Part shown: piece by piece, positions 1,221 to 57,780 of the stretch | Layout of the letters: every line of letters begins with the position of its first letter | How positions within the stretch are numbered: position 1 is the first letter of the stretch | NCBI GenBank assembly: GCA_003150515.1 | Contig: QALW01000010.1 | Coordinates: 15,894-79,893, forward strand | Reading direction: 5' to 3' | DNA: 64,000 nt | DNA from: Selenomonadales bacterium | GTDB lineage: Bacteria > Bacillota > Clostridia > Christensenellales > QALW01 | Translations under genes and position numbers: made by a program | Notes under the pieces: generated by a model | What the model saw: the letters and a program-made list of their open reading frames with translations, nothing else | Database searches by the model: none | Told to the model about the DNA's origin: nothing

Positions 1221-1257
1221 GCCTTGCCCATCAGTTCTTTGAACTGATGGGCAAGGC
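1221..1257. repeat. NP1: perfect hairpin, 17-bp stem and 3-nt loop (gccttgcccatcagttc ttt gaactgatgggcaaggc)
   Basis: Read directly. Lies between the dnaB stop and the ABC gene start. No T-tract follows. Confidence 0.85.
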
Positions 1258-1396
1258 AATAGGAGGGCGCCTTTAAGGCTTTGGGCAAGCGCAGCAATTA
1301 GGAGCGTTAACAGCGGAAGATGCTCCTTTCCTGCCTTTGAGACGGCGCCCGATTATATAAAGCCCGCCCCCGCCCGGCGCCGGGGGGAGGGCGCTC

Positions 1397-2725
1397 CTAG
1401 CGGTAGGAGCGATCCACGAAACGGGTGAACTCGGCTTTCCAAGTGAGCTCTATGCTGCCGGTGGCGCCGTTTCTCTGTTTGGCTACTATGATTTGAGCAA
1501 GGGTTTTATCCTGTTCCTGACTGTCTGTATAATATGCGGGACGGTGGATAAACATGACCACGTCCGCGTCCTGCTCTATTGCGCCCGATTCGCGCAGATC
1601 GCTTAAAACGGGCGTATGATCCGAACGGGTGGCGGCACCGCGGGAAAGCTGGGCCAGCACCATAATGGGCACGTTTAAATCTCTGGCCAGCACTTTTAGC
1701 TGGCGGGAGAGCTCGCTTACTTCCTGCTGGCGGTTTTCGTTTTTCCGGCCGGGAGAGCTCATAAGAGTGAGATAGTCTATAATCACCAGCTTTAAATCTT
1801 TTATGCGCCTGCATTTGCTGCGCACTTCGGCTACGGATATGCCCGCCGTATCGTCTATATAAAGGGGGGCGCGCTCGAGCAGCGTCATGGTGGAATTGAG
1901 CCGTTCAAATTCCTCCTCGCTGATTTCGCCGCGCTTGATTTTTTCAGAATCCACTGCGGCCTCCGAACTGATTATGCGCATGGCCACCTCGGCCTTGGAC
2001 ATTTCCAGAGAGAAAATAGCCGTGGCCTGATTGTTTTTTATGGAGGCGTAGCCGGCGACGTTATGCGAAAAGGAGGATTTGCCCATGGAGGGGCGGCAGG
2101 CCACTATTACAAGGCTGGCCGGCTGAAGCCCGCCCAGGAGCCTGTCCAGCTCCTTAAAGCCCATGGCTATGCCCTGCACCCGGCCCTTAGTGCGGTAGTA
2201 TTCGTCTATGCGCTCGTAGATGTCGGGCAGAATATCCTTCATCTGAGCCATAGCCGAGGCCTCGTTGTTCATTGCGATATTGAAAATTTCCTTTTCGGCC
2301 GTTTCTATTATATCCTTGGAATCTTTTACGGCCGCATAGCTGTCGGTGGCGGTAACGCTGGAAACGCTGATAAGCCGGCGCAGCTTGTATTTTTCTATAA
2401 CGATATCTATGTAATAGGCTAAATTGGCCGTGCTGGGCACGGCGCCCGAAAGCTCGGTTATATACGGAGCTCCTCCGATTAATTCCAGAGTGCCTCTTTT
2501 AACTAATTCGTTCATAAGAGTAATGACGTCCACGGGCTTTCCGGCGTGAAAAAGCGCGCCGATTGCTTCGTAGAGCTCCTGATGATTAGGACGGTAGAAA
2601 TAGTCTTTATTTTTAATGCGCTCAAAAACGGGCGCTATACAATCGCCCGAAAGCAGCATGCAGCCGAGACAGGAGCGCTCGGCGTCTATATCGTTGGGCA
2701 GAATCTGGGCAGCCTGAATTTCCAT
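1397..2725 (-). CDS. dnaB: replicative DNA helicase DnaB
   Basis: 442 aa. N-terminal DnaB domain (PNDIDAERSCLGCMLL), Walker A ACRPSMGKSSF, RecA-like C-terminal domain. Confidence 0.95.
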   Translation of the reverse strand: MEIQAAQILPNDIDAERSCLGCMLLSGDCIAPVFERIKNKDYFYRPNHQELYEAIGALFHAGKPVDVITLMNELVKRGTLELIGGAPYITELSGAVPSTANLAYYIDIVIEKYKLRRLISVSSVTATDSYAAVKDSKDIIETAEKEIFNIAMNNEASAMAQMKDILPDIYERIDEYYRTKGRVQGIAMGFKELDRLLGGLQPASLVIVACRPSMGKSSFSHNVAGYASIKNNQATAIFSLEMSKAEVAMRIISSEAAVDSEKIKRGEISEEEFERLNSTMTLLERAPLYIDDTAGISVAEVRSKCRRIKDLKLVIIDYLTLMSSPGRKNENRQQEVSELSRQLKVLARDLNVPIMVLAQLSRGAATRSDHTPVLSDLRESGAIEQDADVVMFIHRPAYYTDSQEQDKTLAQIIVAKQRNGATGSIELTWKAEFTRFVDRSYR

Positions 2726-2963
2726 TTGGGCTCCTTTGTTATTATTATTTCCGCGCGTAAAATATTTTGAAGAATCGCCGTCTTGTTAAGGCGGGCCGCG
2801 GCTTTATGAGAAACCAACGACAAAGCCGACTTTTATATTATACAGCCTCAAAAGGCCCATGTAAAGAAAAAACCTTTTTTAGGCGCAGAATTTACGCTTT
2901 TTTAATAGTTTAAAGCCTGCGGGGCAGGCTGGGGCCTGGGTGAATTTATGGGGGCGCGCGGCT

Positions 2964-3101
2964 GAAAATAATGAGCGGGGCTTAGCAGGGGGGGCGGCTC
3001 TTGCGGCCGTAAACGGCCGCCCGGCCGCGCCTGCGGCGCGGCCAGGGCAAGCCGCAGGCTTGCCAAGAGCCGCCCCCCGCTAAGCCCCGCTCATTATTTT
3101 C
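2964..3101. repeat. NP2: nested palindrome, about 38-bp outer stem (2-nt bulge) enclosing three hairpins
   Basis: Outer arms gaaaataatgagcggggcttagc...ggcggctcttg / caagagccgcc...gctaagccccgctcattattttc. Inner hairpins at 3004-3019, 3023-3043 and 3046-3064. Confidence 0.9.
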
Positions 3102-3112
3102 CCGCAGCGGCT

Positions 3113-4297
3113 TTATTCCGCAGGGTATAATTTATTAAATACTAAATCGAATTTTTCCAGCGCAAAATCCAATTGCTCTTTAGTATGAGTGGCGGTATAA
3201 CTGGTGCGCAGTATGCTCTCGCCCTCAGGCACGGCCGGAGAAATTACCGGATTTACATATACCCCGTTTTCCAAAAGCGCGCGGGTTATAATGAATGTGC
3301 GTTCGTTTGTGCCTGTGCGGACGGGCACTATGGGAGTTATGCCTTCTCCGCAGGGAATGCCCAGCTTTTTGAAGCCCTCCCGCATGTAATCTCCGTTTTT
3401 GCGCAGCTTCTCGCACCGTTCGGGCTCGCTTTTAAGAATTTCCAGAGATTGGAGCGCGGCCGCCGCGTTGGAGGGAGGAATGGAGGCGCTGAATATGTAG
3501 GGGCGGGAAACGTGCATAGCGTAATCAACCACCCGCTCCTCCGAGGCCATAAAGCCGCCCAGGGAAGCGAAGGATTTGCTGAAGGTGCCCATTATTATGT
3601 CCACTTCCTTTTCCAGCCCGAAATATTCGGCCGTGCCTCGCCCGTGAGCGCCCAATACGCCTATGCCGTGCGAATCGTCCACCATCACCCGAGCGTTATA
3701 GCGCTTGGCCAGGCTGACTATTTCGGGCAGATCGGCCAGATCGCCCTCCATGGAAAACACTCCGTCCACCACTATCAGCTTACCTCTTTCAGCCGGGGCA
3801 TCCTTCAGCTTCTGGGATAAATCGGTCATGTCGTTATGCTCGTATTTAACCAGCTTTGAAAAGCTCAGCCTGGACGCGTCCATTAAAGAGGCGTGATTGG
3901 CTCTGTCAAAAAAGATTATATCGTGCCGTCCGCAAAGCGCGGAAATTATGCCCAGGTTGGTCTGGAATCCGGTGGACCACGTCATGGCGGCCTGCTTGCC
4001 TAAAAATTCAGCCAGCTCGCTTTCCAGTTTTTTATGCAGGGTAAGAGTGCCGTTGAGAAATCGGGAGCCGGAGCATCCCGCGCCTAATTCCTTAAGCGCG
4101 CGGCAGGCTGCGTCTATTACTCTTTCGTCGCTGGTCAGTCCCAGATAGTTGTTGCTGCCCAGCATTATAGTGCGCCGGCCGTCCATAATAACCTCCGAAT
4201 GCTGCTTGGAGGAAATCTCGTGAAAATAGGGATAAATCCCCGCTGCCCGCGCTTGGTCCGCCGGGCTGGGCTCATAGCATTTTTGAAATAGATCCAT
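3113..4297 (-). CDS. PLP-dependent alpha-oxoamine synthase family protein (KBL/BioF/SPT-like; specific substrate not assignable)
   Basis: 394 aa. GSNNYLGL motif, PLP-lysine context GTFSKSFASLGG, DDSHG. No bio or tdh neighbours. Confidence 0.8.
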   Translation of the reverse strand: MDLFQKCYEPSPADQARAAGIYPYFHEISSKQHSEVIMDGRRTIMLGSNNYLGLTSDERVIDAACRALKELGAGCSGSRFLNGTLTLHKKLESELAEFLGKQAAMTWSTGFQTNLGIISALCGRHDIIFFDRANHASLMDASRLSFSKLVKYEHNDMTDLSQKLKDAPAERGKLIVVDGVFSMEGDLADLPEIVSLAKRYNARVMVDDSHGIGVLGAHGRGTAEYFGLEKEVDIIMGTFSKSFASLGGFMASEERVVDYAMHVSRPYIFSASIPPSNAAAALQSLEILKSEPERCEKLRKNGDYMREGFKKLGIPCGEGITPIVPVRTGTNERTFIITRALLENGVYVNPVISPAVPEGESILRTSYTATHTKEQLDFALEKFDLVFNKLYPAE

Positions 4298-4778
4298 TGT
4301 TAATACGCTCCTAATTTAAAAAATAAATATAAAGACAAGATATTATACCATCCGAAAGGCTTAATTGCAAATGGTTATATAATATTTATATATAAGTCGT
4401 CCGGGCTTGTATGCCTCTATAAAGAGGGCTGCATACAGTTTGGGAAAAGGGAGAAGAATAAATACAGCCGCGCGTTTTTAATATGCATGCTTAAACGCTG
4501 CCGGCGTATAGACGGTTAAAACGCTGCCGGCGCCTGCGGCCGGGAATATGCTCTGTTTATAAAGCGAATGCCGGCTTTTTAATCCGCGCATGATAATGTT
4601 TTTTAAAAAGAATGAAAAACGGCGATTATTCGAGATAATAAAGATTATTTCGGATATTTAGAGGCTAAAGCATTGAAACGGCCGCATTCAGCCTTAAATC
4701 AATGTTTATTCATTGCTGTTAAAGTGTTATTCTTAAGAATAAATTTGATTTGCTCCGAACATGAAAGGAGGGCGGCTT

Positions 4779-5510
4779 ATGGAAATAGATGTTTTTCCCA
4801 AGGACGTAGATATTACGCTTTTCGGCCATACCTTCTGGATCAGGGAGACATACCTTACATCCCTTATATTAATAGCTCTTATACTCGTAATCGCCTTGAT
4901 TATCAGATTTGTTTTAATCAGGCGCTTTACAACCGACGTGCGCAAAATAGGCAAGGCGCAGCTTTTATGCGAATACCTCTTTAATATGCTGGAGCGTTTT
5001 ACCAAGGGCGCCGTGGGCAGCATGGGGCCAAAGCTGTCCCCATATATTCTTGCTCTCGCTTTTTATATCCTTCTAAGCGGGGTTATAGAGCTTTTCGGCC
5101 TGCGCACGCCTCTTTCCGACCTCTCGGTGACCGTTTCCTTCGGGCTTTCCACCTTTCTGATTATTAATTATTACGGCCTGAGAGAAAAGGGCGTTATCGG
5201 ACGCATTAAATCCTACGGCAAGCCTAAGCCCATTATAGCGCCTTTTAAGCTCATCAGCGACCTTGCGACTCCCGTAAGCCTGTCCTGCCGTATGTTCGGC
5301 AATATCCTGGGCGGATATATTATAATGGAACTGCTCTATGAGGTCTTGCTGAGCGCTGTGGAAAAATGGCTGGTGGCTATTCCCTTTGCATTTGTAATTC
5401 CGGCGGCGCTGTCTTTGTATTTTACTCTTTTCCACGTTGCTATTCAGTTTTATATTTTTTCCATGCTCAGCCTTACGTTTGTAAGCGAAGCGGTGGAAAA
5501 GGAAGCCTGA
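4779..5510 (+). CDS. atpB: F0F1 ATP synthase subunit a
   Basis: Polytopic membrane protein heading the atp operon. Conserved LSCRMFGNILGG (essential Arg). Start set at the ATG after AGGAGGG. Confidence 0.9.
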   Translation: MEIDVFPKDVDITLFGHTFWIRETYLTSLILIALILVIALIIRFVLIRRFTTDVRKIGKAQLLCEYLFNMLERFTKGAVGSMGPKLSPYILALAFYILLSGVIELFGLRTPLSDLSVTVSFGLSTFLIINYYGLREKGVIGRIKSYGKPKPIIAPFKLISDLATPVSLSCRMFGNILGGYIIMELLYEVLLSAVEKWLVAIPFAFVIPAALSLYFTLFHVAIQFYIFSMLSLTFVSEAVEKEA

Positions 5511-5572
5511 AATTCCGGCGGAGTTTAAGGCCTATATATTTTTAGCTATACTATACTCAGGAGGATTTTATT

Positions 5573-5791
5573 ATGGATTTATCAGTAATAGGCGCGGCCA
5601 TAGCCGTGTTTACCGGTGTGGGAGCGGGCATAGGAATGGGTTTTGCAACGGGCAAGGCCTGCGAAGCGGTGGCGCGTCAGCCTGAGGCCTCGGGCAAAAT
5701 TCAGGGCGTGCTTCTTTTGGGCCTGGCGCTGACTGAATCAGTCGCCATATACGGCCTGCTTATAGCGCTGCTGCTGATTTTCGTCAAATAG
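5573..5791 (+). CDS. atpE: F0F1 ATP synthase subunit c
   Basis: 72-aa two-helix proteolipid with a GxGxGxG-type helix 1 and the carboxylate in [10 protein letters not shown]. Confidence 0.9.
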
Positions 5792-5820
5792 TAAAAGCCG
5801 CGGAAAGGGTTTAAAAATAA

Positions 5821-6315
5821 ATGGATGGATTATTTGGAAGCTGGTTATATATAGTCCTGCATATAGTTAATCTTGCCGTTTTGGTATTCCTGCTCAGGCT
5901 TATTATATATAAGCCCATGAAAAAATTCATGGCCAAGCGCCAAGAGGAACTGGAGCATGAAGTGGCTTCCCTGGATGAGGCGGCCGCCAAATCGGAGGGC
6001 GCCCGCGCGCTTTTGGAGCAGAAGGAAAAGGAACTGGAGCAAAAGCAGCGCAGGGATTATTACGAGGCCATGCAAAAGGCCAGCGCCAGCGCTGATGAAT
6101 TAATAAAGGCCGCTCAGAAAGACGCCGACGCTATAATTGATCAGGCTGAGCGCCGCGCGGATGAAATTAAGCAGGGCGCCAACGAGGAGATACGCGAGGC
6201 GGCCGCGGTTATGGCCGTGGATATAGCCGCCGCAGTTTTGCCCGGCAAGCTTTCAAAAAGCGAGCATGAGGAGCTGCTGGAGGCCAGCGTTGCGGAGGCG
6301 AAGAAATATGGATAA
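5821..6315 (+). CDS. atpF: F0F1 ATP synthase subunit b
   Basis: N-terminal TM helix followed by a long charged coiled coil. Operon position between c and alpha. Confidence 0.85.
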
Positions 6316-8182
6316 CGACCTCATAGTATATACCGCAGTTCCTGTTGACGATGCTGAAAAGCGGCGTCTTCAGGAGTTTTTTAAAGTTAAGTACGGCGCG
6401 GGCAGCGTTGCTTTCAGCGTTAAGGCCGATCTTATCGGAGGCATGCGCCTTGTTTTCAGGGACAGAATAGAGGATTATTCTCTGGCGGGGAGATTGGGCA
6501 GCCTTAAACAGCGCCTTTCGTCGGGCGAAAGGCTTTCGGGAGGCTATCTGGAGGAAGAAGCCGCCGGCCGGTTAAAAGCCATAAAGCGCCGGTATGCCTT
6601 AAAGCGCCCCGGCCTTAACGGAATTAATCCTAAGACGGGCGAGCCTTCGGCAGTGAAAAGAAAGCTTTCGGGGCAGGGAGAGAGAGCGGCTGAAATTATA
6701 GGCGCGCCCCGGCGCAAGCTGAACGCTTTAAGCTTTCAGCCCGTAAAAAACGCAATAGGGCGCGTTATTTCCAGCGCGGACGGCATAGTCGAGGTTTCGG
6801 ATATGTCGGGCGTGAGAATGGGCGAGCTTATAAATTTCCATTCGGGCGCATACGGCATAGCTATGAATCTGGAAAAGGATTATATAGGCGTCGCCGTGTT
6901 TTCGGGAGACGAGAATATTGAAAGCGGCGAGGTTGCCTACGGCACGGGCAAGATTATGGAGGTGCCCGTGGGCAAGGGCCTGCTGGGCAGGGTGGTTAAT
7001 CCCATGGGCATTCCTATAGACGGGCGGGGAGAAATATTATGTTCAAACCATATGCCCATAGAGGCGCCCGCCCCGGGAATTATTGAGCGCGCTCCGGTCA
7101 ACCGGCCTATGCAGACGGGTATTTTGTCCATAGACGCCATGACGCCCATAGGCAGGGGCCAGCGCGAATTGATTATAGGGGACCGTCAAATAGGCAAGAC
7201 GGCCATAGCGGTGGACACCATTCTCAATCAGAAAGATAAGGATATGGTGTGCATATATGTTGCAATAGGGCAGAAGGCTTCTAAAGTAGCCGAATTGGAA
7301 CAGCTTCTCCGCTCGCGGGGGGCTATGGATTATACGGTAATAGTATGCGCCTCCGCTTCGGATAACGCGTCCATGCAGTATATATGCCCGTATGCCGGAT
7401 GCGCTATGGGCGAATATTTTATGCATGAGGGCAAGGACGCGCTGATTATTTACGACGATCTTTCCAAGCACGCCGTCTCTTACCGCACGCTTTCTCTGCT
7501 TTTGAGGAGGCCGCCCGGCCGGGAAGCCTATCCGGGCGACGTATTCTATCTGCATTCCCGCCTTTTGGAGAGGGCCGCTCAGCTTAACGAGGCAAACGGC
7601 GGCGGCTCGCTGACTGCTCTGCCCATAATAGAGACAATGGCCGGAGATATTTCCGCGTATATTCCCACAAACGTAATATCCATAACGGACGGGCAGATAT
7701 TTCTGGATTCGGAATTGTTCCGTTCGGGCGTCAGGCCCTCTGTAAACGTAGGGCTGTCTGTTTCCCGAGTGGGCGGCGCCGCGCAGGGCAAGGCCGTGCG
7801 CAGGGTGTCCGGCCGCATGAGGCTGGATCTGGCTCAATACAGGGAATTAAAGGTGTTCGCGCAGTTCGGCTCGGATTTGGATCCTGCCACGCGCGCCTCT
7901 TTGAATAGGGGCGAGCAGCTCACGGAGGCGCTTAAGCAGAGCCAGTATTCTCCCTATTCCTATGCGGAGGAGGCCATAATTCTCAATATTCTCTCTGAGG
8001 ATTTGTGCCCGCAGGTGCCCCCCGAACAGATTAACCGCTTTATGCGCATGGTGCTGGATAATCTCAGGCTTTCCCATCCGGAGGTAATATTTAATATAGA
8101 GCATGACGACGTTATAACTGAGGACAGCAGGCAGACAATCATTAGCGTGATTCAAGAGCTGCTGGGAAGCTCTGAGGAGTAA
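6308..8182 (+). CDS. atpA: F0F1 ATP synthase subunit alpha with an N-terminal delta(OSCP) C-terminal-domain-like extension
   Basis: Walker A GDRQIGKT and a typical alpha core. The first 75 aa or so ([19 protein letters not shown]...[29 protein letters not shown]) resemble the delta C-terminus. ATGGATAA overlap with atpF. No separate atpH. Confidence 0.85.
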
Positions 8183-8187
8183 AATCT

Positions 8188-9075
8188 ATGCAGAGCATAT
8201 ATGATATAAAGAATCATTTAAAAACGGTAAACAGCACTGTTGAACTGACAAGGGCCATGTATCTTATAAGCGCGAGCCGGATAAGAAAGGCTATGCGGCT
8301 TTATGAGAGCACGGACACTTATTTCAGGCATGCGCGCCGGGCCATTAAGCATATTCTTGTCAATATGCCCAGCATCTCGCATAAATATCTGCAGGTTGAG
8401 CATGACCAAAATAAAGCCACGGCTTATATAGTGATTGCTTCCAATAAGGGAATGGCGGGCGGATACAATCATGATATATGCACGGCCGCGCTGGAACATA
8501 TGAAAAAATGCAAGGGGGCAATAACCCTTTTTACCGTAGGCAGCATGGCGGCCTCCTTTTTCAGGCGGGAGGGCTATGAAATTGAATATGAATATACTTC
8601 CGTTATGAACGATCCGACCATATCGGCGGCGCGGCGCATGATGGAGGGTATAAACGAACGAATTGAGCATAACAGTATAGACCAGGTATACGTCGCCTAT
8701 ACCCATATGGACAGCTCAGTAGTGCAGACTCCCAGGGTGGAGAGGCTGCTTCCTCTGCTTCTGAGCGATTTTGAGGATGTGCAGTTCAGGGACGAATTTG
8801 TGGAGGCGCATGTTATGTACGAGCCCGATCCGGTCACGGTAATAAACGCTTTGGTGCCTCAATATTTAATGGGCATGCTTTACGGAATGCTGGTGCAGGC
8901 TTATGCCAGCGAGCACAGCGTAAGGATGCGCGCCATGGACGAGGCCACGCGCAACGCCGAAGAGATGATAGGAGAACTGGAATTAAAATATAACGGAGCG
9001 CGCCAGGCGGCCATCACCCAGGAAATTACCGAGATAGTTTCAGGCGCGGGCGCGGTGGACGGCGCCGTTCGCTAA
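8188..9075 (+). CDS. atpG: F0F1 ATP synthase subunit gamma
   Basis: 295 aa. Conserved C-terminus ARQAAITQEITEIVSGA. Operon position. Confidence 0.9.
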   Translation: MQSIYDIKNHLKTVNSTVELTRAMYLISASRIRKAMRLYESTDTYFRHARRAIKHILVNMPSISHKYLQVEHDQNKATAYIVIASNKGMAGGYNHDICTAALEHMKKCKGAITLFTVGSMAASFFRREGYEIEYEYTSVMNDPTISAARRMMEGINERIEHNSIDQVYVAYTHMDSSVVQTPRVERLLPLLLSDFEDVQFRDEFVEAHVMYEPDPVTVINALVPQYLMGMLYGMLVQAYASEHSVRMRAMDEATRNAEEMIGELELKYNGARQAAITQEITEIVSGAGAVDGAVR

Positions 9076-9090
9076 AGGGAGGAATTATAA

Positions 9091-10485
<1,395 letters not shown>

Positions 10486-10490
10486 GGGTT

Positions 10491-10910
10491 ATGACTCCGT
10501 ATAAGCTTGAAATAGTTACGCCCGAGCGTACATTTTATAAAGGTATGTGTGAATCCATAGTGCTGGATACCGGTTCAGGCAAAATGGGAGTGTTATACGG
10601 GCATGTGCCGGTAGTGGTTTCTCTGCCTCCTGGAGAAATGGTTATAAAAATGGACGGCGAGGATAAGGTGGCGGTCTGCTCGGGCGGATTTATGGAGATG
10701 CTGGGAAAGAGAGCGTATATTTTTGCCCAGAGCATAGAATGGCTGGAGGAGATTGACGTTCAGCGTGCCATGGAGGCGGCTCGGCGGGCGCGGCGCAAGC
10801 TGGAAGCGGCCAGTAATAAATACGACCGTCAGCGCTTTATATGGGCGCTTGAGAGAGCGGAAACCAGGCTGAAAGCTATTGAGAAAAAACAGCGTGATAT
10901 TACAAAATGA
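10491..10910 (+). CDS. atpC: F0F1 ATP synthase subunit epsilon
   Basis: 139 aa. Beta-sandwich plus helical C-terminus. Last gene of the operon. Confidence 0.9.
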   Translation: MTPYKLEIVTPERTFYKGMCESIVLDTGSGKMGVLYGHVPVVVSLPPGEMVIKMDGEDKVAVCSGGFMEMLGKRAYIFAQSIEWLEEIDVQRAMEAARRARRKLEAASNKYDRQRFIWALERAETRLKAIEKKQRDITK

Positions 10911-10913
10911 TGG

Positions 10914-11178
10914 CTGCGCCCAGCCTTTAGGCTGGGCGCAAAGTCTCAGGGTTTTACGGAAAGCAAAGCTTTCCGTAAAACCCTGAGACTTTGCGTTTTT
11001 TGGCGCCGAAGGCGCCAAAAAACGCAGCCGTTTATTTTACTGGATAAAGGCTTATATGGTTTGGGCCCTGCCTCAGCTTTGCTGAGGCAGGGCCCAAGTG
11101 TCTCCATGTTTAATGGAAAGCTTTGCTTTCCATTAAACATGGAGACACTTGGGGTTGGCTCCCAAAGGGAGCCAACCC
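10914..11178. repeat. NP3: array of six perfect hairpins (two three-hairpin modules)
   Basis: Hairpins at 10914-10939, 10940-10991, 10992-11024, 11061-11095, 11096-11148 and 11150-11178. Stems 11-25 bp; loops ttta/aaa/gaa/ttt/ttt/aaa. Confidence 0.9.
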
Positions 11179-11293
11179 CAAATATTTCATTATTCAATAG
11201 TTGAAATAATAAAAAGGCGGAAATTGTTAAATCAATCTATATTTTTATTTAAGGAGTAATCAAACGAAGATGAAAGAAAATAGTGTATCAAAT

Positions 11294-12001
11294 TTACTTT
11301 GAGCCCTTGCTTCCGTTACATTTACTACATAGAACACGCAAATTTGAAGGAATACTTTTTCCACCTTTGGAGATTGGAATAATATGATCTATATGTAATC
11401 CAACTTCATCTGGCATATATTTTTTGCAAATCTGGCATGTATAGTGATCTCGTTCCATAATTTTTTTTCGCAAGGAAGGAGTCATGAGTTTTCGTTGACT
11501 TTTACTGTTATAATTTCTTAATGTTGTTTCAAAACCGATTTTTTCAAGCTGCTTATGACGATTATCCATCCATTGCCAATTTACTGCCCATTCAGAGACG
11601 ATAACAGATACTTTGTACGCCGTTTTTATATAATTTCTTTGTTGATAACGAGTTTGTTTTCTAATAACCTTAAAATGGAATGCTAGTTTATCATCTAGAA
11701 TGTTTTGGTATTGTTGCGCGCGATATTTCTTTAATCTACAAGCTTGAATATAGTTTTCGGTTTCTTTTTTCCACTCATCAATCTTTTGTTGATGAGTTTG
11801 TATCATTTTCCAGTTCTGTTCGTCTCGAAGAAAATTATCAATATAATCTTCTATTTTAACACTTCGTTTGCCCGTTATATCAAATGAATGAGTAAAATAT
11901 GGGTAATGAAATGGATTTCGTAAAATTCGGCATGTGAGATATATCAATATACACAATACTGAAAAAATAACTACTATTAATAACCATGCGTTTTCAAACA
12001 C
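11294..12001 (-). CDS. membrane-anchored HNH endonuclease domain protein
   Basis: N-terminal TM helix (AWLLIVVIFSVLCILIYL). C-terminal HNH motif CQICKK...HIDHIIPISKGG...NLRVLCSKCNGSKG. GTG start 6 nt after AAGGAGG. Confidence 0.75.
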   Translation of the reverse strand: MFENAWLLIVVIFSVLCILIYLTCRILRNPFHYPYFTHSFDITGKRSVKIEDYIDNFLRDEQNWKMIQTHQQKIDEWKKETENYIQACRLKKYRAQQYQNILDDKLAFHFKVIRKQTRYQQRNYIKTAYKVSVIVSEWAVNWQWMDNRHKQLEKIGFETTLRNYNSKSQRKLMTPSLRKKIMERDHYTCQICKKYMPDEVGLHIDHIIPISKGGKSIPSNLRVLCSKCNGSKGSK

Positions 12002-12182
12002 AGGATACCTCCTTCGTTAAGCTAGGGTTTATTAAATAAAATTGTATAATGCGGAGTAAAACGTAATAGTGTATTTACTACTGCGATACAATATAATTAT
12101 TTGTTTTCATTCGCAAATACATATATTATCTGGTAAACATGTTATAGGGCATCTGTGTTTATCGTATTAGTTGAAGGATATT

Positions 12183-12222
12183 ATTAAAAACCACACTTTG
12201 ACCAATAGACAAAAGTGTGGTT
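12183..12222 (-). terminator. rho-independent terminator downstream of tRNA-Met
   Basis: 11-bp stem aaccacacttt/aaagtgtggtt followed by a T-run on the minus strand. Confidence 0.7.
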
Positions 12223-12227
12223 CTTAA

Positions 12228-12304
12228 TGGTAGCGGCGAGTGGATTCGAACCACCGACCTGTCGGGTATGAACCGAATGCTCTGGCCATCTGAGCTACAC
12301 CGCC
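12228..12304 (-). tRNA. tRNA with CAU anticodon (elongator Met or lysidine-Ile2; not distinguishable by eye)
   Basis: 77 nt. Hand-folded cloverleaf: acceptor GGCGGUG/CGCCGCU, UAGCUCAG D-arm, anticodon loop UUCAUAC, GGUUCGAAUCC T-arm, encoded CCA. Confidence 0.85.
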
Positions 12305-12399
12305 ACATATCAGTATTACGGATTATAGCTTAAACCTGGGCAGTTGTCAAGCATTTATTAATCATATATAATGTCCATTGGATTTAGTTTTGACGGACT

Positions 12400-12518
12400 G
12401 CTTGGTGCCGCCGGCTGCAGCCGGCGGCGCCAAATGACACCCCCTTATCCGGAAAGCAAAGCTTTCCGGATAAGGGGGTGTCATTTGGCTCTGGCGCATT
12501 AATGCGCCAGAGCCAAGC
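12400..12518. repeat. NP4: three-hairpin module with a weak 6-bp closing stem
   Basis: Hairpins at 12402-12433 (one G-T pair), 12432-12486 (26-bp stem, apex ggaaagc aaa gctttcc) and 12487-12514. gcttgg/ccaagc closes the module. Confidence 0.85.
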
Positions 12519-12526
12519 TTTAGCAT

Positions 12527-12718
12527 TTAATCCATTTCATCTTCAATAATATCGTTCAAATGGATAGGATCAATACCGCCGTAGAAATTGCATTTGTCAA
12601 TAATTCTTTGTACTTTGTCAGAATCATGGGATAATAGTTTATACACGTCACCGCACCTTATTCCATACATGGCTCCAACACCTTCTACAGGGACTTCGAA
12701 AATTTCGCATTCGTACAT
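12527..12718 (-). CDS. small conserved hypothetical protein, paralogue A (63 aa)
   Basis: MYECEIFE...YGIRCG...KCNFYGGIDPIHLNDIIEDE. AGGAGG lies 7 nt before the ATG. One of four paralogues in the window. Confidence 0.8.
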   Translation of the reverse strand: MYECEIFEVPVEGVGAMYGIRCGDVYKLLSHDSDKVQRIIDKCNFYGGIDPIHLNDIIEDEMD

Positions 12719-12760
12719 AATGAACCTCCTTATTAATTGGTTAAATATTTCTTTTTCTAC

Positions 12761-12803
12761 AATATATCATAAACCGAAAAAATTATCAAGTATTTTTTGG
12801 AAA
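12761..12803 (-). promoter_or_regulatory. sigma-A-type promoter of paralogue A plus upstream TTTCCAAAA box
   Basis: In gene sense: TTGATA, 17 nt, TGaTATATTGTA. A CCAAA box lies 7 nt upstream of the -35. Confidence 0.65.
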
Positions 12804-12959
12804 TTAAGTATAATAATTTTTAATAGCATATTTTATTTCATTAAAAATACAAAATTAGACATGTAAGAATAAATTACTTGCATAACATAATATATAGAGC
12901 GCATAATAGGCTATTATTTATTAAATGTTTGATTACAATTTTTAACTATTTGTAAAATT

Positions 12960-13005
12960 TATAAAATAAGATACAAGGCAGGAGAAAAATATTCTGCCTG
13001 CCTTG
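12960..13005 (-). terminator. terminator of paralogue B
   Basis: 9-bp stem caaggcagg/cctgccttg followed by T-rich sequence on the minus strand. Confidence 0.6.
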
Positions 13006-13057
13006 CTTCTATATTGCGCTGTTTTGTTATGTACCTTTGCTGTGAACTGATCAGAAA

Positions 13058-13255
13058 TTAACCTTGCCATAATTCATCTTCAATAATGTCACCCAGATGA
13101 ATTGGATCTATGCCGCCATATTCGTTGCATTTATCAGAAATTCTTTTGACATTGTCCAGATTATCTGATACCAGCGCTTTAACTCTGCCACATTTAATAC
13201 CATACATGGTCCCTTTTCCTGGAACAGTTGTCTCAAATATTTCGCATTTATACAC
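13058..13255 (-). CDS. small conserved hypothetical protein, paralogue B (65 aa)
   Basis: Start moved to the GTG 8 nt after AAGGAGG, giving MYKCEIFE... in register with paralogues A and D. YGIKCG, KCNEYGGIDPIHLGDIIEDE. Confidence 0.8.
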   Translation of the reverse strand: MYKCEIFETTVPGKGTMYGIKCGRVKALVSDNLDNVKRISDKCNEYGGIDPIHLGDIIEDELWQG

Positions 13256-13298
13256 CCTGTCCACCTCCTTCTTACTAATAAATCACCTACTTTTTTAC

Positions 13299-13342
13299 AA
13301 TATACCATATTTATCAGTATTAGGCAAGCGGTTTTTGGTAAT
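13299..13342 (-). promoter_or_regulatory. promoter of paralogue B plus TTACCAAAA box
   Basis: In gene sense: TTGCCT, 17 nt, TGgTATATTGTA. Box lies 8 nt upstream of the -35. Confidence 0.65.
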
Positions 13343-13414
13343 TTTTATAATTATTTATAAATATTTAATGTGTATTATTTCAAATAGTTACTTATTGATA
13401 AAAAATATGTAATA

Positions 13415-13516
13415 TGCTCTGGCTCTTGTAGGCCAGAGCATAGTCTCAATGTTAAACTGAAAGCATAGCTTTCAGTTTAACATTGAGACTTAGCGCCCAG
13501 CCAAAGGCTGGGCGCT
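13415..13516. repeat. NP5: three-hairpin module
   Basis: Hairpins at 13415-13440 (tgctctggc/gccagagca), 13442-13490 (23-bp stem, apex gaaagc ata gctttc) and 13492-13516 (agcgcccagcc aaa ggctgggcgct). Confidence 0.9.
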
Positions 13517-13937: not shown

Positions 13938-14072
13938 ACTGGGGGGCGGCGCGAGCCCGGCCTGCGGCCGGGCTCAGCGGAGCACAGATATGGGAAAGCG
14001 CAGCTTTCCCATATCTGTGCTCCGCCAGCGCATGGCGCCTTAATGGCGCCATGCGCTGCGCCGCCCCCCAGT
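13938..14072. repeat. NP6: 14-15-bp outer stem enclosing three hairpins (four-way junction)
   Basis: Outer arms actggggggcggcg/cgccgccccccagt. Inner hairpins at 13953-13975, 13977-14025 (apex gggaaagc gca gctttccc) and 14026-14058. Confidence 0.9.
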
Positions 14073-19917: not shown

Positions 19918-20102
19918 GGGGCCGGGAAATAAAATTCCAGCCAAGGGGGGCGGCGCGGAGCCCTTCGGGCCGAGCGGAGCCGCCGCGGCGGGCAAGGCAA
20001 GCCTTGCCCGCTCCGCGCCGGCTCCGCTTTATTTCGGCGCGCCCGAAGGGGCGCCGAAATTCCGCGCCGCCCCCCTTGGCTGGAATTTTATTTCCCGGCC
20101 CC
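19918..20102. repeat. NP7: 42-bp perfect outer stem enclosing three inner hairpins (185 bp)
   Basis: Arms 19918-19959 and 20061-20102 are exact reverse complements. Inner structures include gcgggcaaggc aa gccttgcccgc. Lies between convergent genes. Confidence 0.9.
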
Positions 20103-25604: not shown

Positions 25605-25865
25605 TGAGCGCTTGGCGGCGCATGCCCCAGCGAAGCTGGGGCATGCGCCGGGGCGCGGCGTCCGGCAAGCAAATGCTTGCCAAGGCCGAGCTTGCGCTCG
25701 GCCTTCGCGGCCCTGCGGGCCGCGGGACGCCGCGCCCCCCGGCACCTCGTGCCGGTTTGGCGTTTGCGGCCCGCAGGGCCGCCGTCCGGGGCTTTTAGCC
25801 CCGGACGGGCAGGCGCTCAGCGCCTGCCAAACGCCGAATCGGGCATGAGGCGCCAAGCGCCCTCA
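25605..25865. repeat. NP8: seamless series of hairpin, four-way junction, hairpin, four-way junction, closed by a long-range stem
   Basis: 25617-25649 hairpin; 25650-25738 outer stem plus three hairpins; 25739-25755 hairpin; 25756-25838 outer stem plus three hairpins. gcgcttggcg (25608) pairs with cgccaagcgc (25851). Confidence 0.9.
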
Positions 25866-27355: not shown

Positions 27356-27517
27356 AAAAGCCAATAAGCATTTATGTTTATGGCGCACGGCCCCGCTAAG
27401 CGGGGCCGTGCGCCGGGGCGCGATGCGCGGCAAGCGAAAGCTTGCCGCTGTTCGAGCCTGCGGCTCGGAACCGGCGGCTTGGCCGCCGGCATCGCGCCTA
27501 GGTGCTTATTGGCTTTT
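27356..27517. repeat. NP9: 15-bp outermost stem enclosing a 15-bp hairpin and a 10-bp stem that closes three hairpins
   Basis: aaaagccaataagca (27356-27370) pairs with tgcttattggctttt (27503-27517). Hairpin at 27382-27414; junction at 27417-27498. Fills the whole convergent intergenic gap. Confidence 0.9.
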
Positions 27518-27984: not shown

Positions 27985-28043
27985 AAACGGGGGCATGCCC
28001 GGTTAATATTATTTAATAATATTAACCGGGCATGCCCCCGTTT
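27985..28043. repeat. NP10: 59-bp perfect palindrome (29-bp arms, 1-nt centre)
   Basis: aaacgggggcatgcccggttaatattatt t aataatattaaccgggcatgcccccgttt. Lies 3' of the GDPD gene. Confidence 0.9.
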
Positions 28044-41827: not shown

Positions 41828-42086
41828 TAAACGGCCGTGAGCGGGCGCGGAGAGAAAGTTTTCGGGCAATTGTTCTGCCCGAGGCGGCTTATAGGCCGGC
41901 GGGCTGCCGGCTCTGCGCCGGGCGCCGGATGCATTTGCCGGCGCGGAGCGCAGCCTGTGCCGGCGTTTATCAAGCATACGCTCCGCGGCACCCGAATATA
42001 TATTTATAGGATTCTATTTAATAGGAGACTGTTTTTTAACGCAGCCTCCTATAAATATGCTGAAAATTTTAAAAGGAGCCCTCTTT

Positions 42087-52858: not shown

Positions 52859-52945
52859 GGGGCGGCGCTGCGCAGGCGCTTTAGCGCCTGCTGGGGGCGC
52901 GCTTTCAGCGCGCCCCCGCGGCCTTCGGCCGCGCAGCGCCGCCCC
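52859..52945. repeat. NP11: 13-15-bp outer stem enclosing three hairpins (87 bp)
   Basis: ggggcggcgctgcgc / gcgcagcgccgcccc. Inner hairpins aggcgc ttta gcgcct, gggggcgcgc tttca gcgcgccccc and gcggcc ttc ggccgc. Confidence 0.9.
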
Positions 52946-54272: not shown

Positions 54273-54303
54273 AAAGGGAAAGCTGTTTTTCAGCTTTCCC
54301 TTT
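54273..54303. terminator. NP12: bidirectional terminator-like perfect hairpin with GGGAAAGC/GCTTTCCC arms
   Basis: aaagggaaagctg ttttt cagctttcccttt, between convergent genes. A-tract and T-tract flanks. Confidence 0.8.
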
Positions 54304-56143: not shown

Positions 56144-56196
56144 GGCAGCTTTCCCCTTTATTTTTTCGGCTTTAATTTTGTTCAGGAACAATTCGG

Positions 56197-57561
56197 CTAT
56201 TCAAAGCATAGCTTCAGGGCTTCGCGTACAGATTGAGCAAAGCATAAATTAAGCCCGCTCTGCGGAAGTCCCTTTTTATTTCCGTTGGGCAGAATAATCC
56301 GCTTGAATCCCAGCTTCTCGCATTCGCTTATGCGCTTGGCAATGCCAGTTACGGCGCGCAGCTCTCCTGTCAGCCCGATTTCTCCTATAAGCACGGTGTC
56401 CTTATCCACGGCCTGCGCTCTCAGGCTGGAAACCAGCGCGCATACCATAGCTAAATCCGAGCCCGGCTCGTCCAGGCGGAAACCGCCCGCTACATTTATA
56501 AATACGTCCTGAGTATACAGCTTAAAGCCCAGCTTTTTTTCCAGAACGGCCAGCAGCATGTTCATGCGGCTGTAATCCACTCCTGTTCCAGTCCGGCGGG
56601 GCATAGGGGTAACGGCCGTGCTGCAAAGGGCCTGAAGCTCGCAGAGCACAGGCCTGGAGCCTTCCATGGCGCAGTATACGGCCGAGCCGGGCTCTGTCCG
56701 CGGGCTCTGGCTTAAAAACATTTCGCTGGGATTCTTAACCTCCTCCATGCCGTTTGCGCTCATTTCAAAAACCCCTATTTCATTAGTGGAGCCGAAACGG
56801 TTTTTGGCCGCCCGCAGTATGCGGAAAGTATTGGAACGCTCTCCCTCGAAATATAATACGGTGTCCACAATATGTTCCAGCACTTTAGGACCGGCAATAG
56901 AGCCTTCTTTTGTGACGTGCCCGACTATGAATATGGCGCATCCCATTTCTTTAGCCAGGCGCATAAGGCGTCCGGCGCATTCGCGCACCTGGGAGACGCT
57001 GCCCGGCGCGCTGCTTATATCGGGAGTATAGATAGTCTGAATGGAATCGCAGATTACTATTTCGGGCTTTAGAAACTGAATCTGAGAGATTATATCGTTT
57101 AATTCGGTTTCTGCAAGTATGTAAAGCTCGCCTTCAATCGCGCCCAGCCTGTCCGCCCTGAGGCGCACTTGCTTGGACGATTCTTCAGCCGAGATATAGA
57201 GGAGCTTTCTGCCTGACTGAGAGCATAAAAGCGCCGTCTGGAGCAAAAGCGTGGATTTGCCTATGCCGGGATCTCCCGCGCAGAGCACTACCGAGGCGGG
57301 CACTATTCCTCCGCCTAATACTCTTTCCAATTCGGGTATGCCGCAGGGTATGCGCGAAATTTCAGCAGTTTCAACGTCCTTAAGCTGCACGGCCTTTGCC
57401 GCGGTTCCGTAATGGGCGGAGGAGGCGCTCTGAGAATGCTGGGGCTGGATTTCTTCTTCAATTAAGCAGTTCCAGTTTTGGCAGTTGGGGCACCGCCCCA
57501 TCCATTTGCCCGATTCATAGCCGCATTCAGAGCATACGAATCGTGTTTTTACTTTCGCCAA
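56197..57561 (-). CDS. radA: DNA repair protein RadA/Sms
   Basis: Zn ribbon CSECGYESGKWMGRCPNC, Walker A GDPGIGKST, KNRFG motif, Lon-like C-terminus. Confidence 0.97.
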   Translation of the reverse strand: MAKVKTRFVCSECGYESGKWMGRCPNCQNWNCLIEEEIQPQHSQSASSAHYGTAAKAVQLKDVETAEISRIPCGIPELERVLGGGIVPASVVLCAGDPGIGKSTLLLQTALLCSQSGRKLLYISAEESSKQVRLRADRLGAIEGELYILAETELNDIISQIQFLKPEIVICDSIQTIYTPDISSAPGSVSQVRECAGRLMRLAKEMGCAIFIVGHVTKEGSIAGPKVLEHIVDTVLYFEGERSNTFRILRAAKNRFGSTNEIGVFEMSANGMEEVKNPSEMFLSQSPRTEPGSAVYCAMEGSRPVLCELQALCSTAVTPMPRRTGTGVDYSRMNMLLAVLEKKLGFKLYTQDVFINVAGGFRLDEPGSDLAMVCALVSSLRAQAVDKDTVLIGEIGLTGELRAVTGIAKRISECEKLGFKRIILPNGNKKGLPQSGLNLCFAQSVREALKLCFE

Positions 57562-57636
57562 AAAATAATTCCCCCTTAATCGGCCGCTTTGAGCGGCTTA
57601 TATTTCTATTACATTTGCGCGGCTGACGTTCCGCTC

Positions 57637-57780
57637 TTTGCCGCAATAAAAAGAATCAACGCCGCGGCGCCGGCCGCTTTGCGGGCCTCCGGCCCGCCGG
57701 GGCCCCTCCGGGGCCCTGCCCCCGCGCGCGGGGGCAAGCGGCCGGCCCCGCGGCGTTGATTCTTTATTATTGCGGCAAAA
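57637..57780. repeat. NP13: about 31-bp outer stem (1-nt bulge), 11-bp second stem and three inner hairpins (144 bp)
   Basis: tttgccgcaataaaaagaatcaacgccgcgg pairs with ccgcggcgttgattctttattattgcggcaaa. Inner structures gccggccgctt/aagcggccggc, gcgggcc tcc ggcccgc, gggcccc tcc ggggccc and tgcccccgcgcgcgggggca. Confidence 0.9.

Follow-up and report, generated by a model that had tools for sequence, protein, structure and literature searches.

A dispersed family of nested palindromes at gene ends in uncultured gut Christensenellaceae, with a proposed role for template switching in its maintenance

The closest described counterparts of the elements considered here are the REP and BIME sequences of enterobacteria and pseudomonads, which are extragenic and mostly 3' of genes, GC-rich, multicopy and lineage-specific, and which combine several palindromic units into mosaics. 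They have been proposed to act in termination, to stabilise mRNA and to bind proteins, in the case of BIMEs gyrase and IHF. REPIN doublets, moved by RAYT transposases, are palindromes made of palindromes. Firmicutes intrinsic bidirectional terminators stand directly after stop codons and have GC-rich stems, and in Neisseria dispersed short repeats, the Correia elements and paired DNA-uptake sequences (DUS), serve as terminator-hairpin stems 3' of genes. Parvovirus (AAV) ITRs are GC-rich nested palindromes in which an outer stem surrounds small hairpins; these ends of linear genomes occur in flip and flop orientations, flipping by hairpin transfer in rolling-hairpin replication. The GC clusters and palindromic repeats of fungal, algal and sponge organelles are self-propagating hairpins that fill intergenic DNA. 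Finally, arm homogenisation, spacer inversion and the formation of perfect hairpins are documented outcomes of replication template switching (PMC8794818, PMC8604942, PMC7202029). At the quasipalindrome hotspots studied by Ripley and the Lovett laboratory (PMC8794818, PMC8604942), perfect arms are created or extended in single events, but these hotspots have been described for isolated sites and for rRNA and miRNA genes, not as the means of maintaining a dispersed family with a conserved core. Terminators across bacteria show raised spacer polymorphism and conserved arms (PMC13155455).

Here we describe a previously undescribed palindrome family from a small clade of uncultured human-gut Christensenellaceae, of which about 150 kb of DNA was examined. 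It came to light in a 64,000-nucleotide stretch of one contig (the window), in which an earlier note had reported 13 GC-rich, almost mismatch-free nested palindromes (NP1–NP13) of recurring architecture. That observation is real: all 13 were found where reported and fold as claimed, most with loops of 3–4 nt. RNAfold gives about 754 pairs over the 13 elements, including 13 G-U; the earlier count was about 50 helices and about 700 paired bp, with few G-T pairs. An inverted-repeat finder recovered the same arms, which reach 42 nt with 100% complementarity. We counted 28 perfect stems of 9 bp or more with a loop of 3–6 nt in the window, compared with a mean of 1.07 (maximum 5) in 30 dinucleotide shuffles of it, an excess of about 26-fold; the longest such stem measures 29 bp in the window and 11 bp in the shuffles. 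Long perfect stems are thus far rarer in shuffled controls, the comparison that had been set in advance. Folded with DNA parameters, the elements have z-scores of −9.0 to −17.3, equalled by 0 of 200 shuffles. The density of perfect hairpins with 12 bp or more is 2.5 per 10 kb in the window versus 0.33 per 10 kb in a comparison set of 1.45 Mb from 84 loci (80 from other Firmicutes and 4 strain contigs of the window species).

The elements constitute a conserved sequence family dispersed over loci and species, not a structural class alone. The unit, of about 100–140 bp, is a GC-rich outer stem closing a four-way junction of three hairpins. Its outer stem has the conserved core GGGGCGGCGCG/CGCGCCGCCCC. 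Hairpin 1 carries the tip GCCCGGCC (palindromic form GCCCGGCC-NNN-GGCCGGGC); hairpin 2, of 21–29 bp, has a stem that varies freely below the tip GGAAAGC (GGAAAGC-NNN-GCTTTCC); and hairpin 3 is A/T-rich at its base and bears the tip TGGCGCC (TGGCGCC-NNN-GGCGCCA). The unit occurs bare, inside long outer arms of unique sequence, doubled, or as single long hairpins. Across the family the tips and outer core persist while the stems drift. The primary sequence had been thought to differ between loci; because these motifs recur from locus to locus around a common four-helix core, the element sequences are not unrelated. Nor are the elements unique to the window, a possibility that the earlier note had raised against its own reading: a pattern scan of metagenomes found about 12 full modules with the same four conserved blocks on other contigs, including those of other species.

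A covariance model (R1), built from only 7 non-window modules on unrelated metagenome contigs, matches 12 modules in the window, which belong to 10 of its 13 elements (Table 1). Scores are highest, at 58–111 bits, for NP3a through NP7, and lie at 24–30 bits for NP2, NP8a/b, NP9 and NP11. R1 also detected additional members on contigs of the clade and in a second region, of 22 kb and probably from the window species, and gave 0 matches at E up to 1 in other Firmicutes (82 loci, 1.456 Mb). In a family alignment that was fitted to R1 and holds both strands of many elements, 98.1% of 1454 cells are paired versus 63.6% after shuffling (0 of 500 shuffles pair as well), double-sided changes are seen in 46 of 50 family pairs, and G-U accounts for about 17 cells, or about 1%.

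Table 1. Elements of the window, with their structure, setting and match to covariance model R1.
Element	Position	Strand	Structure and setting	R1 match
NP1	1221..1257		Lone perfect 17-bp hairpin, dnaB 3' end to ABC-ATPase start	None (E 0.75)
NP2	2964..3101	-	29-bp outer stem (core GGGGGGCGGCTCTTG) around three GC hairpins; 3' of aminotransferase gene	29.7 bits, E 5e-4
NP3a	10914..11026	+	Three-hairpin module, tips GCGCCCAGCC, GGAAAGC, TTTTTTGGCGCC; starts 4 nt past atpC stop codon	79.8 bits
NP3b	11061..11181	+	Second three-hairpin module; middle hairpin 29 bp, perfect	79.9 bits
NP4	12400..12518	+	Three-hairpin module, 6-bp outer stem; DUF6514 gene to predicted tRNA-Met promoter	69.8 bits
NP5	13415..13516	-	Three-hairpin module 3' of a DUF6514 gene	63 bits, minus strand
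NP6	13938..14072	+	Canonical four-helix module 3' of AraC-type gene; outer stem GGGGGGCGGCGC; hairpin 1 GAGCCCGGCC; hairpin 2 of 23 bp, tip GGGAAAGC; hairpin 3 tip TGGCGCC; DNA z-score −17.3	111.3 bits, E 7e-21
NP7	19918..20102	+	42-bp perfect outer stem (A/T tracts and core GGGGGGCGGCGCGGA) around three hairpins; between convergent genes	58.3 bits
NP8	25605..25865		Compound: hairpin and two four-helix modules (25650-25739, 25751-25842) within imperfect outer stem 25586-25882; GDSL gene to PGA_cap	24.8 and 23.7 bits
NP9	27356..27517		A/T-rich outer stem around one hairpin plus a second-level stem with three hairpins; between convergent genes	24.5 bits
NP10	27985..28043		Single perfect palindrome, 28-29 bp, with GGGCATGCCC nested in each arm	21 bits, marginal
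NP11	52859..52945		Three GC hairpins within outer stem GGGGCGGCGCTGCGC; exact GGGGCGGCG core in both arms	25.3 bits
NP12	54273..54303		13-bp hairpin AAAGGGAAAGCTG-TTTTT-CAGCTTTCCCTTT; an ordinary bidirectional terminator, probably not a family member	None
NP13	57637..57780		Long outer stem, A/T then GC, around three short GC hairpins; family architecture	None at E up to 1
Extra cluster	41842..41990		Nested GC-rich, imperfect hairpins; possibly a decayed relative	E 0.85

Set beside the known systems, the family shares with REP/BIME sequences the general features listed above and differs in its unit, which is a four-way junction, not a single hairpin or doublet; in its essentially perfect arms, where REPs are imperfect; in copies that share tips and core only, with unique stems; in the lack of a GTAG-type tag and of any RAYT seen; and in its host, a Clostridia-class gut anaerobe. 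Correia elements, in contrast, have terminal inverted repeats, a TA duplication and one conserved sequence, DUS pairs are simple hairpins, and neither forms four-helix nested palindromes. The likeness to AAV ITRs is one of architecture and flip/flop only, with no known sequence relationship, and the present elements are chromosome-internal, not genome ends.

The location of the elements is that of terminators. As previously reported, none interrupts a CDS and each lies 3' of a gene: all 13 are intergenic, 4–140 nt 3' of a stop codon, with 9 in tandem, 4 in convergent and 0 in divergent spacers. At the NP2 and NP3 sites, relatives at 78–79% amino acid identity have simple A-stem-T hairpins, plain terminators whose place the elements take. 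Several copies are flanked by A- and T-tracts. NP2, NP7, NP9 and NP13 have an A-rich 5' arm and a T-rich 3' arm, the middle hairpin of NP3a is followed by TTTGCGTTTTTT, and a T-tract is found within 25 nt on 16 of 54 element sides, a 2.5-fold enrichment over a background of 12%. All of this would suit intrinsic (bidirectional) terminators of an elaborate kind, or stabilisers of mRNA 3' ends, whose perfection stems from selection on the transcript alone, an explanation that we nonetheless consider unlikely. More than half of the elements are without a T-tract, and in some, such as NP7, an outer GC clamp lies beyond it, so that a terminated RNA would be without the clamp. Three of 14 classifiable copies in related contigs occupy divergent (5'-5') spacers. 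Both strands fold equally well, with no asymmetry even in tandem spacers, where only one strand should matter, and G-U makes up only about 1% of pairs. Furthermore, hairpin stability does not explain the conserved tips and outer core, and loop flips and interior inversions, presented below, are DNA events. Of the earlier suggestion of bidirectional terminators, what holds is the position and the A-/T-rich outer arms of some elements; the T-tract counts, the divergent copies and the distal clamps speak against it. Firmicutes terminators also differ in form, since the present elements have three hairpins in place of a loop, reach 90–265 nt in total and share conserved sequence blocks. The four sites that had been set apart as ordinary terminators (24402, 39831, 47468 and 50038) are indeed short, imperfect and T-tailed.

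Comparison of strains reveals how the symmetry changes. Loops are flipped between strains in NP2 (three loops), NP3b, NP5, NP8 and NP10. NP2 has five alleles among six strains, with three independent loop flips, and its whole interior is inverted in two strains; the centre of NP10 is flipped in strain L101. In strain L085, NP3b combines a TTT to AAA loop flip with a compensated A-T to G-C change, and NP5 a loop flip with a compensated A-T to T-A change, while NP4 shows a compensated C-G to T-A change in two independent assemblies. By our own estimate from the observed divergence, chance alone would yield at most about 0.13 compensated double substitutions of this kind (NP3b, NP4, NP5). Elements also differ by deletions of 147, 88 and 74 nt: NP3a is absent by deletion from L085, NP7 has short alleles from which 88 nt between GCCGCC direct repeats are missing and in which the tip is inverted, and NP8 in strain L095 has lost one module of 74 nt, with a GAA to TTC loop flip. 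Variation in NP1 is confined to the loop and closing pair and in NP13 to one loop substitution, and NP12 is identical in 6 strains. Two strains that are about 99% identical differ at 2.5–3.4% of sites in elements, 1.0–1.2% in other spacers and 0.7% in CDS, and a third, closer strain gives a similar ratio.

The same pattern extends to the sister species, in which elements at orthologous sites have diverged yet perfect arms. Every one of the pairs that changed between species, at least 26 in all, is compensated; entire hairpins have been exchanged, and distal arms have been replaced. Specifically, 10 of 23 hairpin-2 pairs of NP6 differ in its orthologue (L244) and all are compensated, as are 5 of 5 changed pairs in an orthologue of NP3a (L258) and 6 consecutive pairs in NP5, where one hairpin has also been replaced. 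The NP2 orthologue keeps the core, its distal arms being unrelated and still perfect, and NP7 retains the outer core with different interior hairpins. NP8 shares homologous hairpins, and NP9 has the same architecture with covarying stems; an N-gap of the scaffold falls inside it. The loop and interior flips, together with joint changes of both arms, place the symmetry at the level of DNA and not of RNA alone, as had been suggested from the window and as the lack of strand bias and near absence of G-U pairs also indicate.

On balance, we favour the view that the family consists of clade-specific, REP/BIME-like mosaic palindromes, mostly in terminator positions, whose perfection is maintained by template switching at replication. 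The family shows exactly the footprints that such switching predicts: homogenised arms with double compensatory changes, inverted spacers, and perfect arms made or lengthened in a single event. While it is being synthesised, the nascent strand would fold back or switch strands inside a palindrome, as in the template switch that Ripley and Lovett described for quasipalindromes and that Monttinen and Loytynoja extended. Such a switch would copy one arm onto the other, whereupon a mutation would be either erased or doubled; it would also flip loops and interiors, and it could lengthen the arms outward by copying flanking sequence. Arm-to-arm copying would leave the elements perfect despite fast sequence drift. 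Where transcription units end, the elements may serve in either orientation as stops or insulators, and also as structures protecting 3' ends, and the conserved hairpin tips probably bind a putative host factor. Template switching accounts for maintenance, not for the conserved tips and outer core or for copies at new loci.

Those copies raise the question of mobility. The four-block core is present at many unrelated loci in several species; the sister species has a paralogous copy, with 30 identical nt, at the opposite flank of the aminotransferase gene; and downstream of SpoIIE it has a full module where the window species has a single hairpin. Strains differ in the presence or absence of modules, and relatives with plain hairpins attest to lineage specificity, both as anticipated. 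A non-autonomous REP/REPIN- or MITE-like element, mobilised by a dedicated enzyme encoded elsewhere and preferring terminator hairpins for insertion, could produce such a distribution, but on the about 150 kb of clade DNA examined we regard this origin as improbable. There is neither a conserved GTAG/CGTC tag nor terminal inverted repeats with a direct target duplication, the window holds no transposase, the observed indels resemble deletions between microhomologies, and divergence between copies is far above that of an active REPIN population. Many copies, moreover, have been at orthologous sites since the species split. The earlier proposal of a REP/MITE-like mobile unit thus survives in the dispersed, conserved family and its paralogous copies, and fails on the tag, target duplication and nearby transposase.

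The persistence of palindromic tips and outer core amid drifting stems, and the symmetry at the DNA level, would also be consistent with putative cruciform or dimer-binding sites that would help to organise the nucleoid, insulate supercoils or control replication-transcription traffic. With respect to the gene upstream, modules are found in either orientation, so that function appears to be orientation-independent, which fits such sites as well. This reading is compatible with maintenance by template switching and not exclusive of it; as the explanation in its own right we think it very unlikely.

Because the window, like every sequence compared with it, was assembled from short metagenome reads, we also considered whether de Bruijn-graph assemblers had collapsed or invented palindromes and oriented loops arbitrarily. 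Contig or scaffold ends and N-gaps are frequent inside elements (contigs often break at NP8, and one begins at NP13), so some allele structures could be assembler-affected. However, identical elements come from many independent samples and three assembler types, with agreement of SPAdes, MEGAHIT (k=141) and Logan (k=31) contigs; most flipped hairpins (17–61 nt) are shorter than the final k; the elements lie within long contigs with genes on either side; and orthologues in other species covary consistently. That the elements are artefacts is, in our judgement, extremely improbable.

In a sliding MFE scan, the 13 elements cover essentially all regions of the window below −60 kcal per 120 nt, the only extras being the intergenic, imperfect cluster listed last in Table 1 and one intra-CDS region. 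Separately, direct folding of 62050-62260 gave one more imperfect hairpin cluster.

An inverted-repeat finder recovered the arms of NP1 to NP13, the 13 GC-rich nested palindromes numbered in window order, as the earlier note had given them, with 42-nt arms in NP7 and 28–29-nt hairpin arms in NP3, NP4 and NP10 all being 100% complementary. Folding of the 13 intervals gave 754 bp with 13 G-U pairs and loops mostly of 3–4 nt, which upholds the description of these structures as nearly free of mismatches. Perfect stems of at least 9 bp with a 3–6-nt loop number 28 in the window, compared with a mean of 1.07 (maximum 5) in 30 dinucleotide-preserving shuffles of the window, and its longest perfect stem is 29 bp, compared with 11 bp in any shuffle. 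Folding with DNA parameters yielded z-scores of −9.0 to −17.3 for six elements. Fold strength is equal on both strands, and the strand-biased G-U pairing that would signal selection at the RNA level was not found. A sliding MFE scan of the window returned practically the same set of regions, adding one imperfect intergenic cluster and one region within a CDS, and direct folding revealed a second imperfect cluster. These two clusters of GC-rich nested hairpins could represent family relatives that have decayed.

The density of perfect hairpins of 12 bp or more is 2.5 per 10 kb in the window and 0.33 per 10 kb in a comparison set of 1.45 Mb (84 loci), composed of four strain contigs of the window species and 80 loci from other Firmicutes. 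The latter were drawn by the ATP synthase beta subunit at 65–71% identity and exclude the source genome; other Firmicutes were returned because this protein is too conserved. All 13 elements sit 4–140 nt past a stop codon, nine of them occupying tandem spacers and the other four convergent ones; no divergent spacer of the window contains any. Ordinary housekeeping genes flank the elements, among them dnaB, the atp operon, radA and groEL, and the four terminators singled out as ordinary do prove to be short, imperfect and T-tailed. The window encodes proteins identical to those of human-gut MAGs labelled 'Christensenellaceae bacterium', and its DNA recurs in hundreds of gut metagenome assemblies.

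The elements belong to a sequence family that is restricted to one clade. The 9-mers common to the window elements resembled GC-rich noise, and the family became clear only via related contigs. A relative with a 65%-identical PGA_cap carries a GAAAGC-tipped hairpin upstream, followed by GATTTTGGCGCC-AAA-GGCGCCAAAATT and then CCGCGCCGCCCC. A metagenome scan for GAAAGC-NNN-GCTTTC followed within 10–40 nt by GGCGCC-N3-5-GGCGCC returned 31 loci, about 12 of which are full modules of one plan on contigs of 38–47% GC. In this module an outer stem encloses three hairpins, and the family alignment contains the conserved blocks GGGGCGGCGCG, GCCCGGCC, GGAAAGC and TGGCGCC. Six of the seven exact GGGGCGGCG sites in the window are outer arms of NP6, NP7 and NP11; with one mismatch allowed, the core motif was not above chance in frequency. 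R1, a covariance model of the module, was trained on seven modules, none of them from the window. Its scores in the window, where NP1, NP12 and NP13 gave no match, are listed in the table, and its E-values are rough. R1 found further copies in clade contigs and had zero matches at E up to 1 in 1.456 Mb of other Firmicutes (82 loci). R1-positive modules, all intergenic, number 12 in the 64-kb window and two in another 22-kb region, probably also of the window species; between strains, one of these two differs by a compensated change and a loop flip. Extrapolation from these 86 kb would give roughly one module per 11 kb and 4–5 perfect hairpins per 10 kb. Clade contigs also hold many single long hairpins, at times two in a row adjoining a module, and their long, unique, perfect arms (27–32 bp) must arise by single inverted-duplication events.

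Table. Modules, elements and neighbouring features (positions are in the window unless a contig, L-number, is named; flips are exchanges for the reverse complement between strains)
Feature	Position	R1 score	Flip	Description
Module outer stem				GGGG(C)GGCGCG.../...CGCGCCGCCCC
Module hairpin 1				tip GCCCG(R)CC
Module hairpin 2				stem 21–29 bp, perfect, variable; tip GGAAAGC
Module hairpin 3				base A/T-rich; tip TGGCGCC
NP6		111 bits, E 7e-21
NP3b (module of NP3)		80 bits	TTT/AAA
NP3a (module of NP3)		80 bits
NP4		70 bits
NP5		63 bits	AAA/TTT
NP7		58 bits	tip
NP2		30 bits	TGC/GCA, TAAA/TTTA, GCA/TGC
NP11, NP9		24–25 bits
NP8 (modules NP8a, NP8b)		24–25 bits	GAA/TTC
NP10		marginal	palindrome centre
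Imperfect cluster (MFE scan)	41842-41990	E ~0.8
Imperfect cluster (direct folding)	62050-62260	E ~0.8
Module in clade contigs	L267 vs L268 4973-5029		loop
Single perfect hairpins	L266 5587-5719; L249 3066-3126; L267 4041-4098			unique-sequence arms of 27–32 bp
Promoter pair	12322-12372			two near-consensus sigma-70-type promoters back to back, 12/12 and 11/12 positions matched; one points to tRNA-Met, the other to NP4
Island	11200-13900			34% GC; HNH endonuclease gene, tRNA-Met, three DUF6514 paralogues
HNH endonuclease gene	11294-12001 (-)			Pfam HNH_5/HNH, weak Endonuclease VII match
Fourth DUF6514 gene	~27516-27710 (-)
Helicase-methyltransferase block	29639-34639			DEAD/ResIII helicase, N6_N4 DNA methyltransferase, Fic protein
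667-aa ORF	57812-59815 (-)			no Pfam match; 635 aa in L102, L105 and L107
Tandem repeat	L103 404-560			55-nt unit, 2.9 copies; fewer in L102; N-gap in L106
Sister-species insert	L112 1571-1880 / L113 1536-1850			~300 nt, ~30-bp inverted repeats at its ends

Covariation within the family is of the Watson-Crick kind only. In a model-guided alignment of 31 matches, which is fitted to R1 and in which many elements are represented by both strands, 98.1% of the 1454 cells are paired, compared with 63.6% in shuffles (0 of 500 reached the observed value); two-sided changes occur at 46 of 50 pairs, with double changes in 441 cells and G-U in only about 17. An RNAalifold run on a MAFFT alignment gave a concordant picture. 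The same pattern is seen between orthologues. A sister species with matching gene order and proteins 73–94% identical holds homologous, diverged elements at the sites of NP2, NP3a, NP5, NP6, NP7, NP8 and NP9, and orthologous hairpins, those of NP3a, NP5 and NP6 among them, show at least 26 compensated changes and no uncompensated one. In hairpin 2 of NP6, 10 of 23 pairs differ; in that of NP5, six consecutive pairs differ; and in NP3a, five pairs differ. A whole hairpin has been exchanged in the NP5 slot (GCTCTGGC in NP5, GGCCCCGGCGCC in the sister species), the NP7 interior differs, and the distal outer arms of NP2 are unrelated between the two species yet perfectly palindromic in each. A further copy in the sister species lies in the divergent aminotransferase-atpB spacer and shares 30 identical nucleotides with the NP2 orthologue of that species.

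Polymorphism among strains of the window species operates at the DNA level. In contigs 99.1–100% identical to the window (SPAdes, MEGAHIT at k=141 and Logan at k=31), loops of NP2, NP3b, NP5 and NP8, the NP10 centre and the NP7 tip turn up as their reverse complement on unaltered stems. In two strains, the three hairpins inside the outer stem of NP2 are inverted as one block with respect to that stem, and six NP2 sequences represent five alleles in which loop and interior flips are freely combined. Changes at mirror positions in both arms were found in NP4 (C-G to T-A, in two independent assemblies), NP5 (A-T to T-A) and NP3b (A-T to G-C); these are three paired changes between 99%-identical strains, for which we estimate a chance expectation of at most about 0.13 at the observed divergence. 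Whole pieces are also missing in some strains, namely NP3a (147 nt), 88 nt of the NP7 interior between GCCGCC direct repeats, and one module of NP8 (74 nt), each indel being bounded by microhomology inside the element (GCCC, GCCGCC). Between two strains about 99% identical, per-site differences are 2.5–3.4% in elements, 1.0–1.2% in other spacers and 0.7% in coding DNA; a third, closer strain shows the same ordering with lower absolute values. Contigs and scaffolds frequently break off or hold N-gaps within elements, an assembly nuisance in both the window species and its sister that makes MAGs less contiguous and can leave local orientation scrambled.

Replication template switching at quasipalindromes is known to homogenise arms, invert spacers, and create or extend perfect arms in one event (PMC8794818, PMC8604942, PMC7202029), and a survey of 118,019 genomes found bacterial terminators with elevated spacer polymorphism and conserved arms (PMC13155455). 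The elements resemble such hairpins in that spacers or loops invert with arms unchanged and in that both arms change jointly, without mismatch or G-T intermediates. Because the footprints match those documented at quasipalindromes, we infer that template switching, or else arm-arm recombination, would keep the elements perfect and rapidly reshuffle them, while selection would hold the four-helix plan, the tips and the outer core. The elements are, in our reading, a REP/BIME-like mosaic family of palindromes specific to one clade. Like REP/REPIN-RAYT systems, the family consists of a short palindromic unit in many extragenic copies; unlike them, its alignment is without a GTAG or CGTC tetranucleotide tag at the stem base. 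REPs usually flank the gene of their cognate RAYT, an IS200/IS605-like Y1 transposase; in the window and the fetched contigs, no transposase domain (PF01797 or other) was reported for those genes that were scanned or listed. A MITE would show TIRs with a direct target-site duplication and empty sites in other strains, but the strain indels here end in element-internal microhomology. Two main risks remain, namely effects of short-read assembly and a dedicated enzyme that escaped detection.

All 13 elements share with intrinsic terminators a GC-rich hairpin at the 3' end of a transcription unit, and they would occupy terminator slots. Two contigs of more distant relatives (aminotransferase 78–79% identical) have only simple A-stem-T hairpins after atpC and the aminotransferase gene and are nearly devoid of other perfect hairpins. 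Both the location of the elements and the plain terminators that they stand in for favour a function where transcription units end. Intrinsic terminators carry a U-tract of 7–9 nt directly after the hairpin. A T-tract (at least six T in eight, within 25 nt) flanks 16 of 54 element sides, compared with a 12% background, and 15 of 27 elements have one on neither side; a simple terminator scan of positions 1-20000 flagged NP3 alone. In many elements the outer palindromes reach at least 25 nt past the core, NP7 has a GC clamp beyond its T-tract, modules are found in either orientation with regard to the gene upstream, and divergent spacers contain three of the 14 classifiable copies from related contigs. 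The long outer palindromes, the NP7 clamp, both orientations and the divergent copies, and less clearly the share of sides with a T-tract, fit a simple intrinsic terminator poorly. Since one of the two sigma-70-type promoters points to NP4, a small antisense RNA might be made from this module.

The conserved tips and outer core point to a putative binding partner or copying mechanism. We consider it quite unlikely that the four-helix module is the working part of a dedicated clade system rather than a passive repeat. Such a system would use a fixed scaffold (the outer core and three tips) to carry a variable, perfectly paired 10–17-bp hairpin 2 insert. A structure-specific enzyme might recognise the junction and copy or flip it by a hairpin-primed ('rolling-hairpin'-like) mechanism, in which case the module would be a new kind of self-propagating DNA element; alternatively, the scaffold might present the variable duplexes as processed RNAs. 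Bearing on this proposal, a search of 2.3 Gb of phage genomes with 26 variable arms gave nothing at E up to 10, and a guide or spacer role was rejected on this result. The GAAAGC-NNN-GCTTTC tip alone is common in ordinary terminators of viral contigs, with arms of at most 13 bp; these contigs contain no modules and no TTTTGGCGCC-NNN-GGCGCCAAAA.

Integron cassettes were considered for the small DUF6514 ORFs that alternate with modules. The arms of the elements are perfect, whereas attC is an imperfect palindrome with R''/L''-L'/R' boxes and extrahelical bases, arrayed beside intI; we rejected this candidate on the perfect arms, the lack of attC boxes and the lack of an integrase in the window. 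No integrase was found in the fetched flanks either, and the GTTRRRY core is absent from the elements.

Christensenellaceae are a heritable, health-associated gut group, known here from metagenome-assembled genomes alone, and the repeat family was previously undescribed in them. Rfam 15 at gathering score matched two tRNAs only in the window, with spurious miRNA-precursor hairpins as the sole additions at E up to 0.5, and literature searches that covered nested palindromes, repeats of Christensenellaceae and REP/RAYT in Clostridia yielded no specific match. The family offers a natural, population-level case of hairpins that probably evolve via arm-to-arm copying. Because near-identical strains differ by loop flips, interior flip/flop and paired substitutions, and because pairing stays perfect across species, the template-switch model of 'compensatory' evolution becomes directly testable in a bacterium.

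Several other loci in and near the window vary as well. The HNH endonuclease gene is present or absent among 99%-identical strains (missing in L085). The helicase-methyltransferase block, which appears restriction- or defence-like, is missing from the syntenic region of the sister species, where one contig (L109) has an NTP_transf_2 gene instead. The 667-aa ORF is a length polymorphism in an uncharacterised protein, and the variable-number 55-nt repeat lies between YceD and SmpB, about 3 kb past the right end of the window. In the sister species, the stretch from the PGA_cap stop codon to the NP9 orthologue contains the insert listed in the table, which resembles an independent MITE-like insertion.
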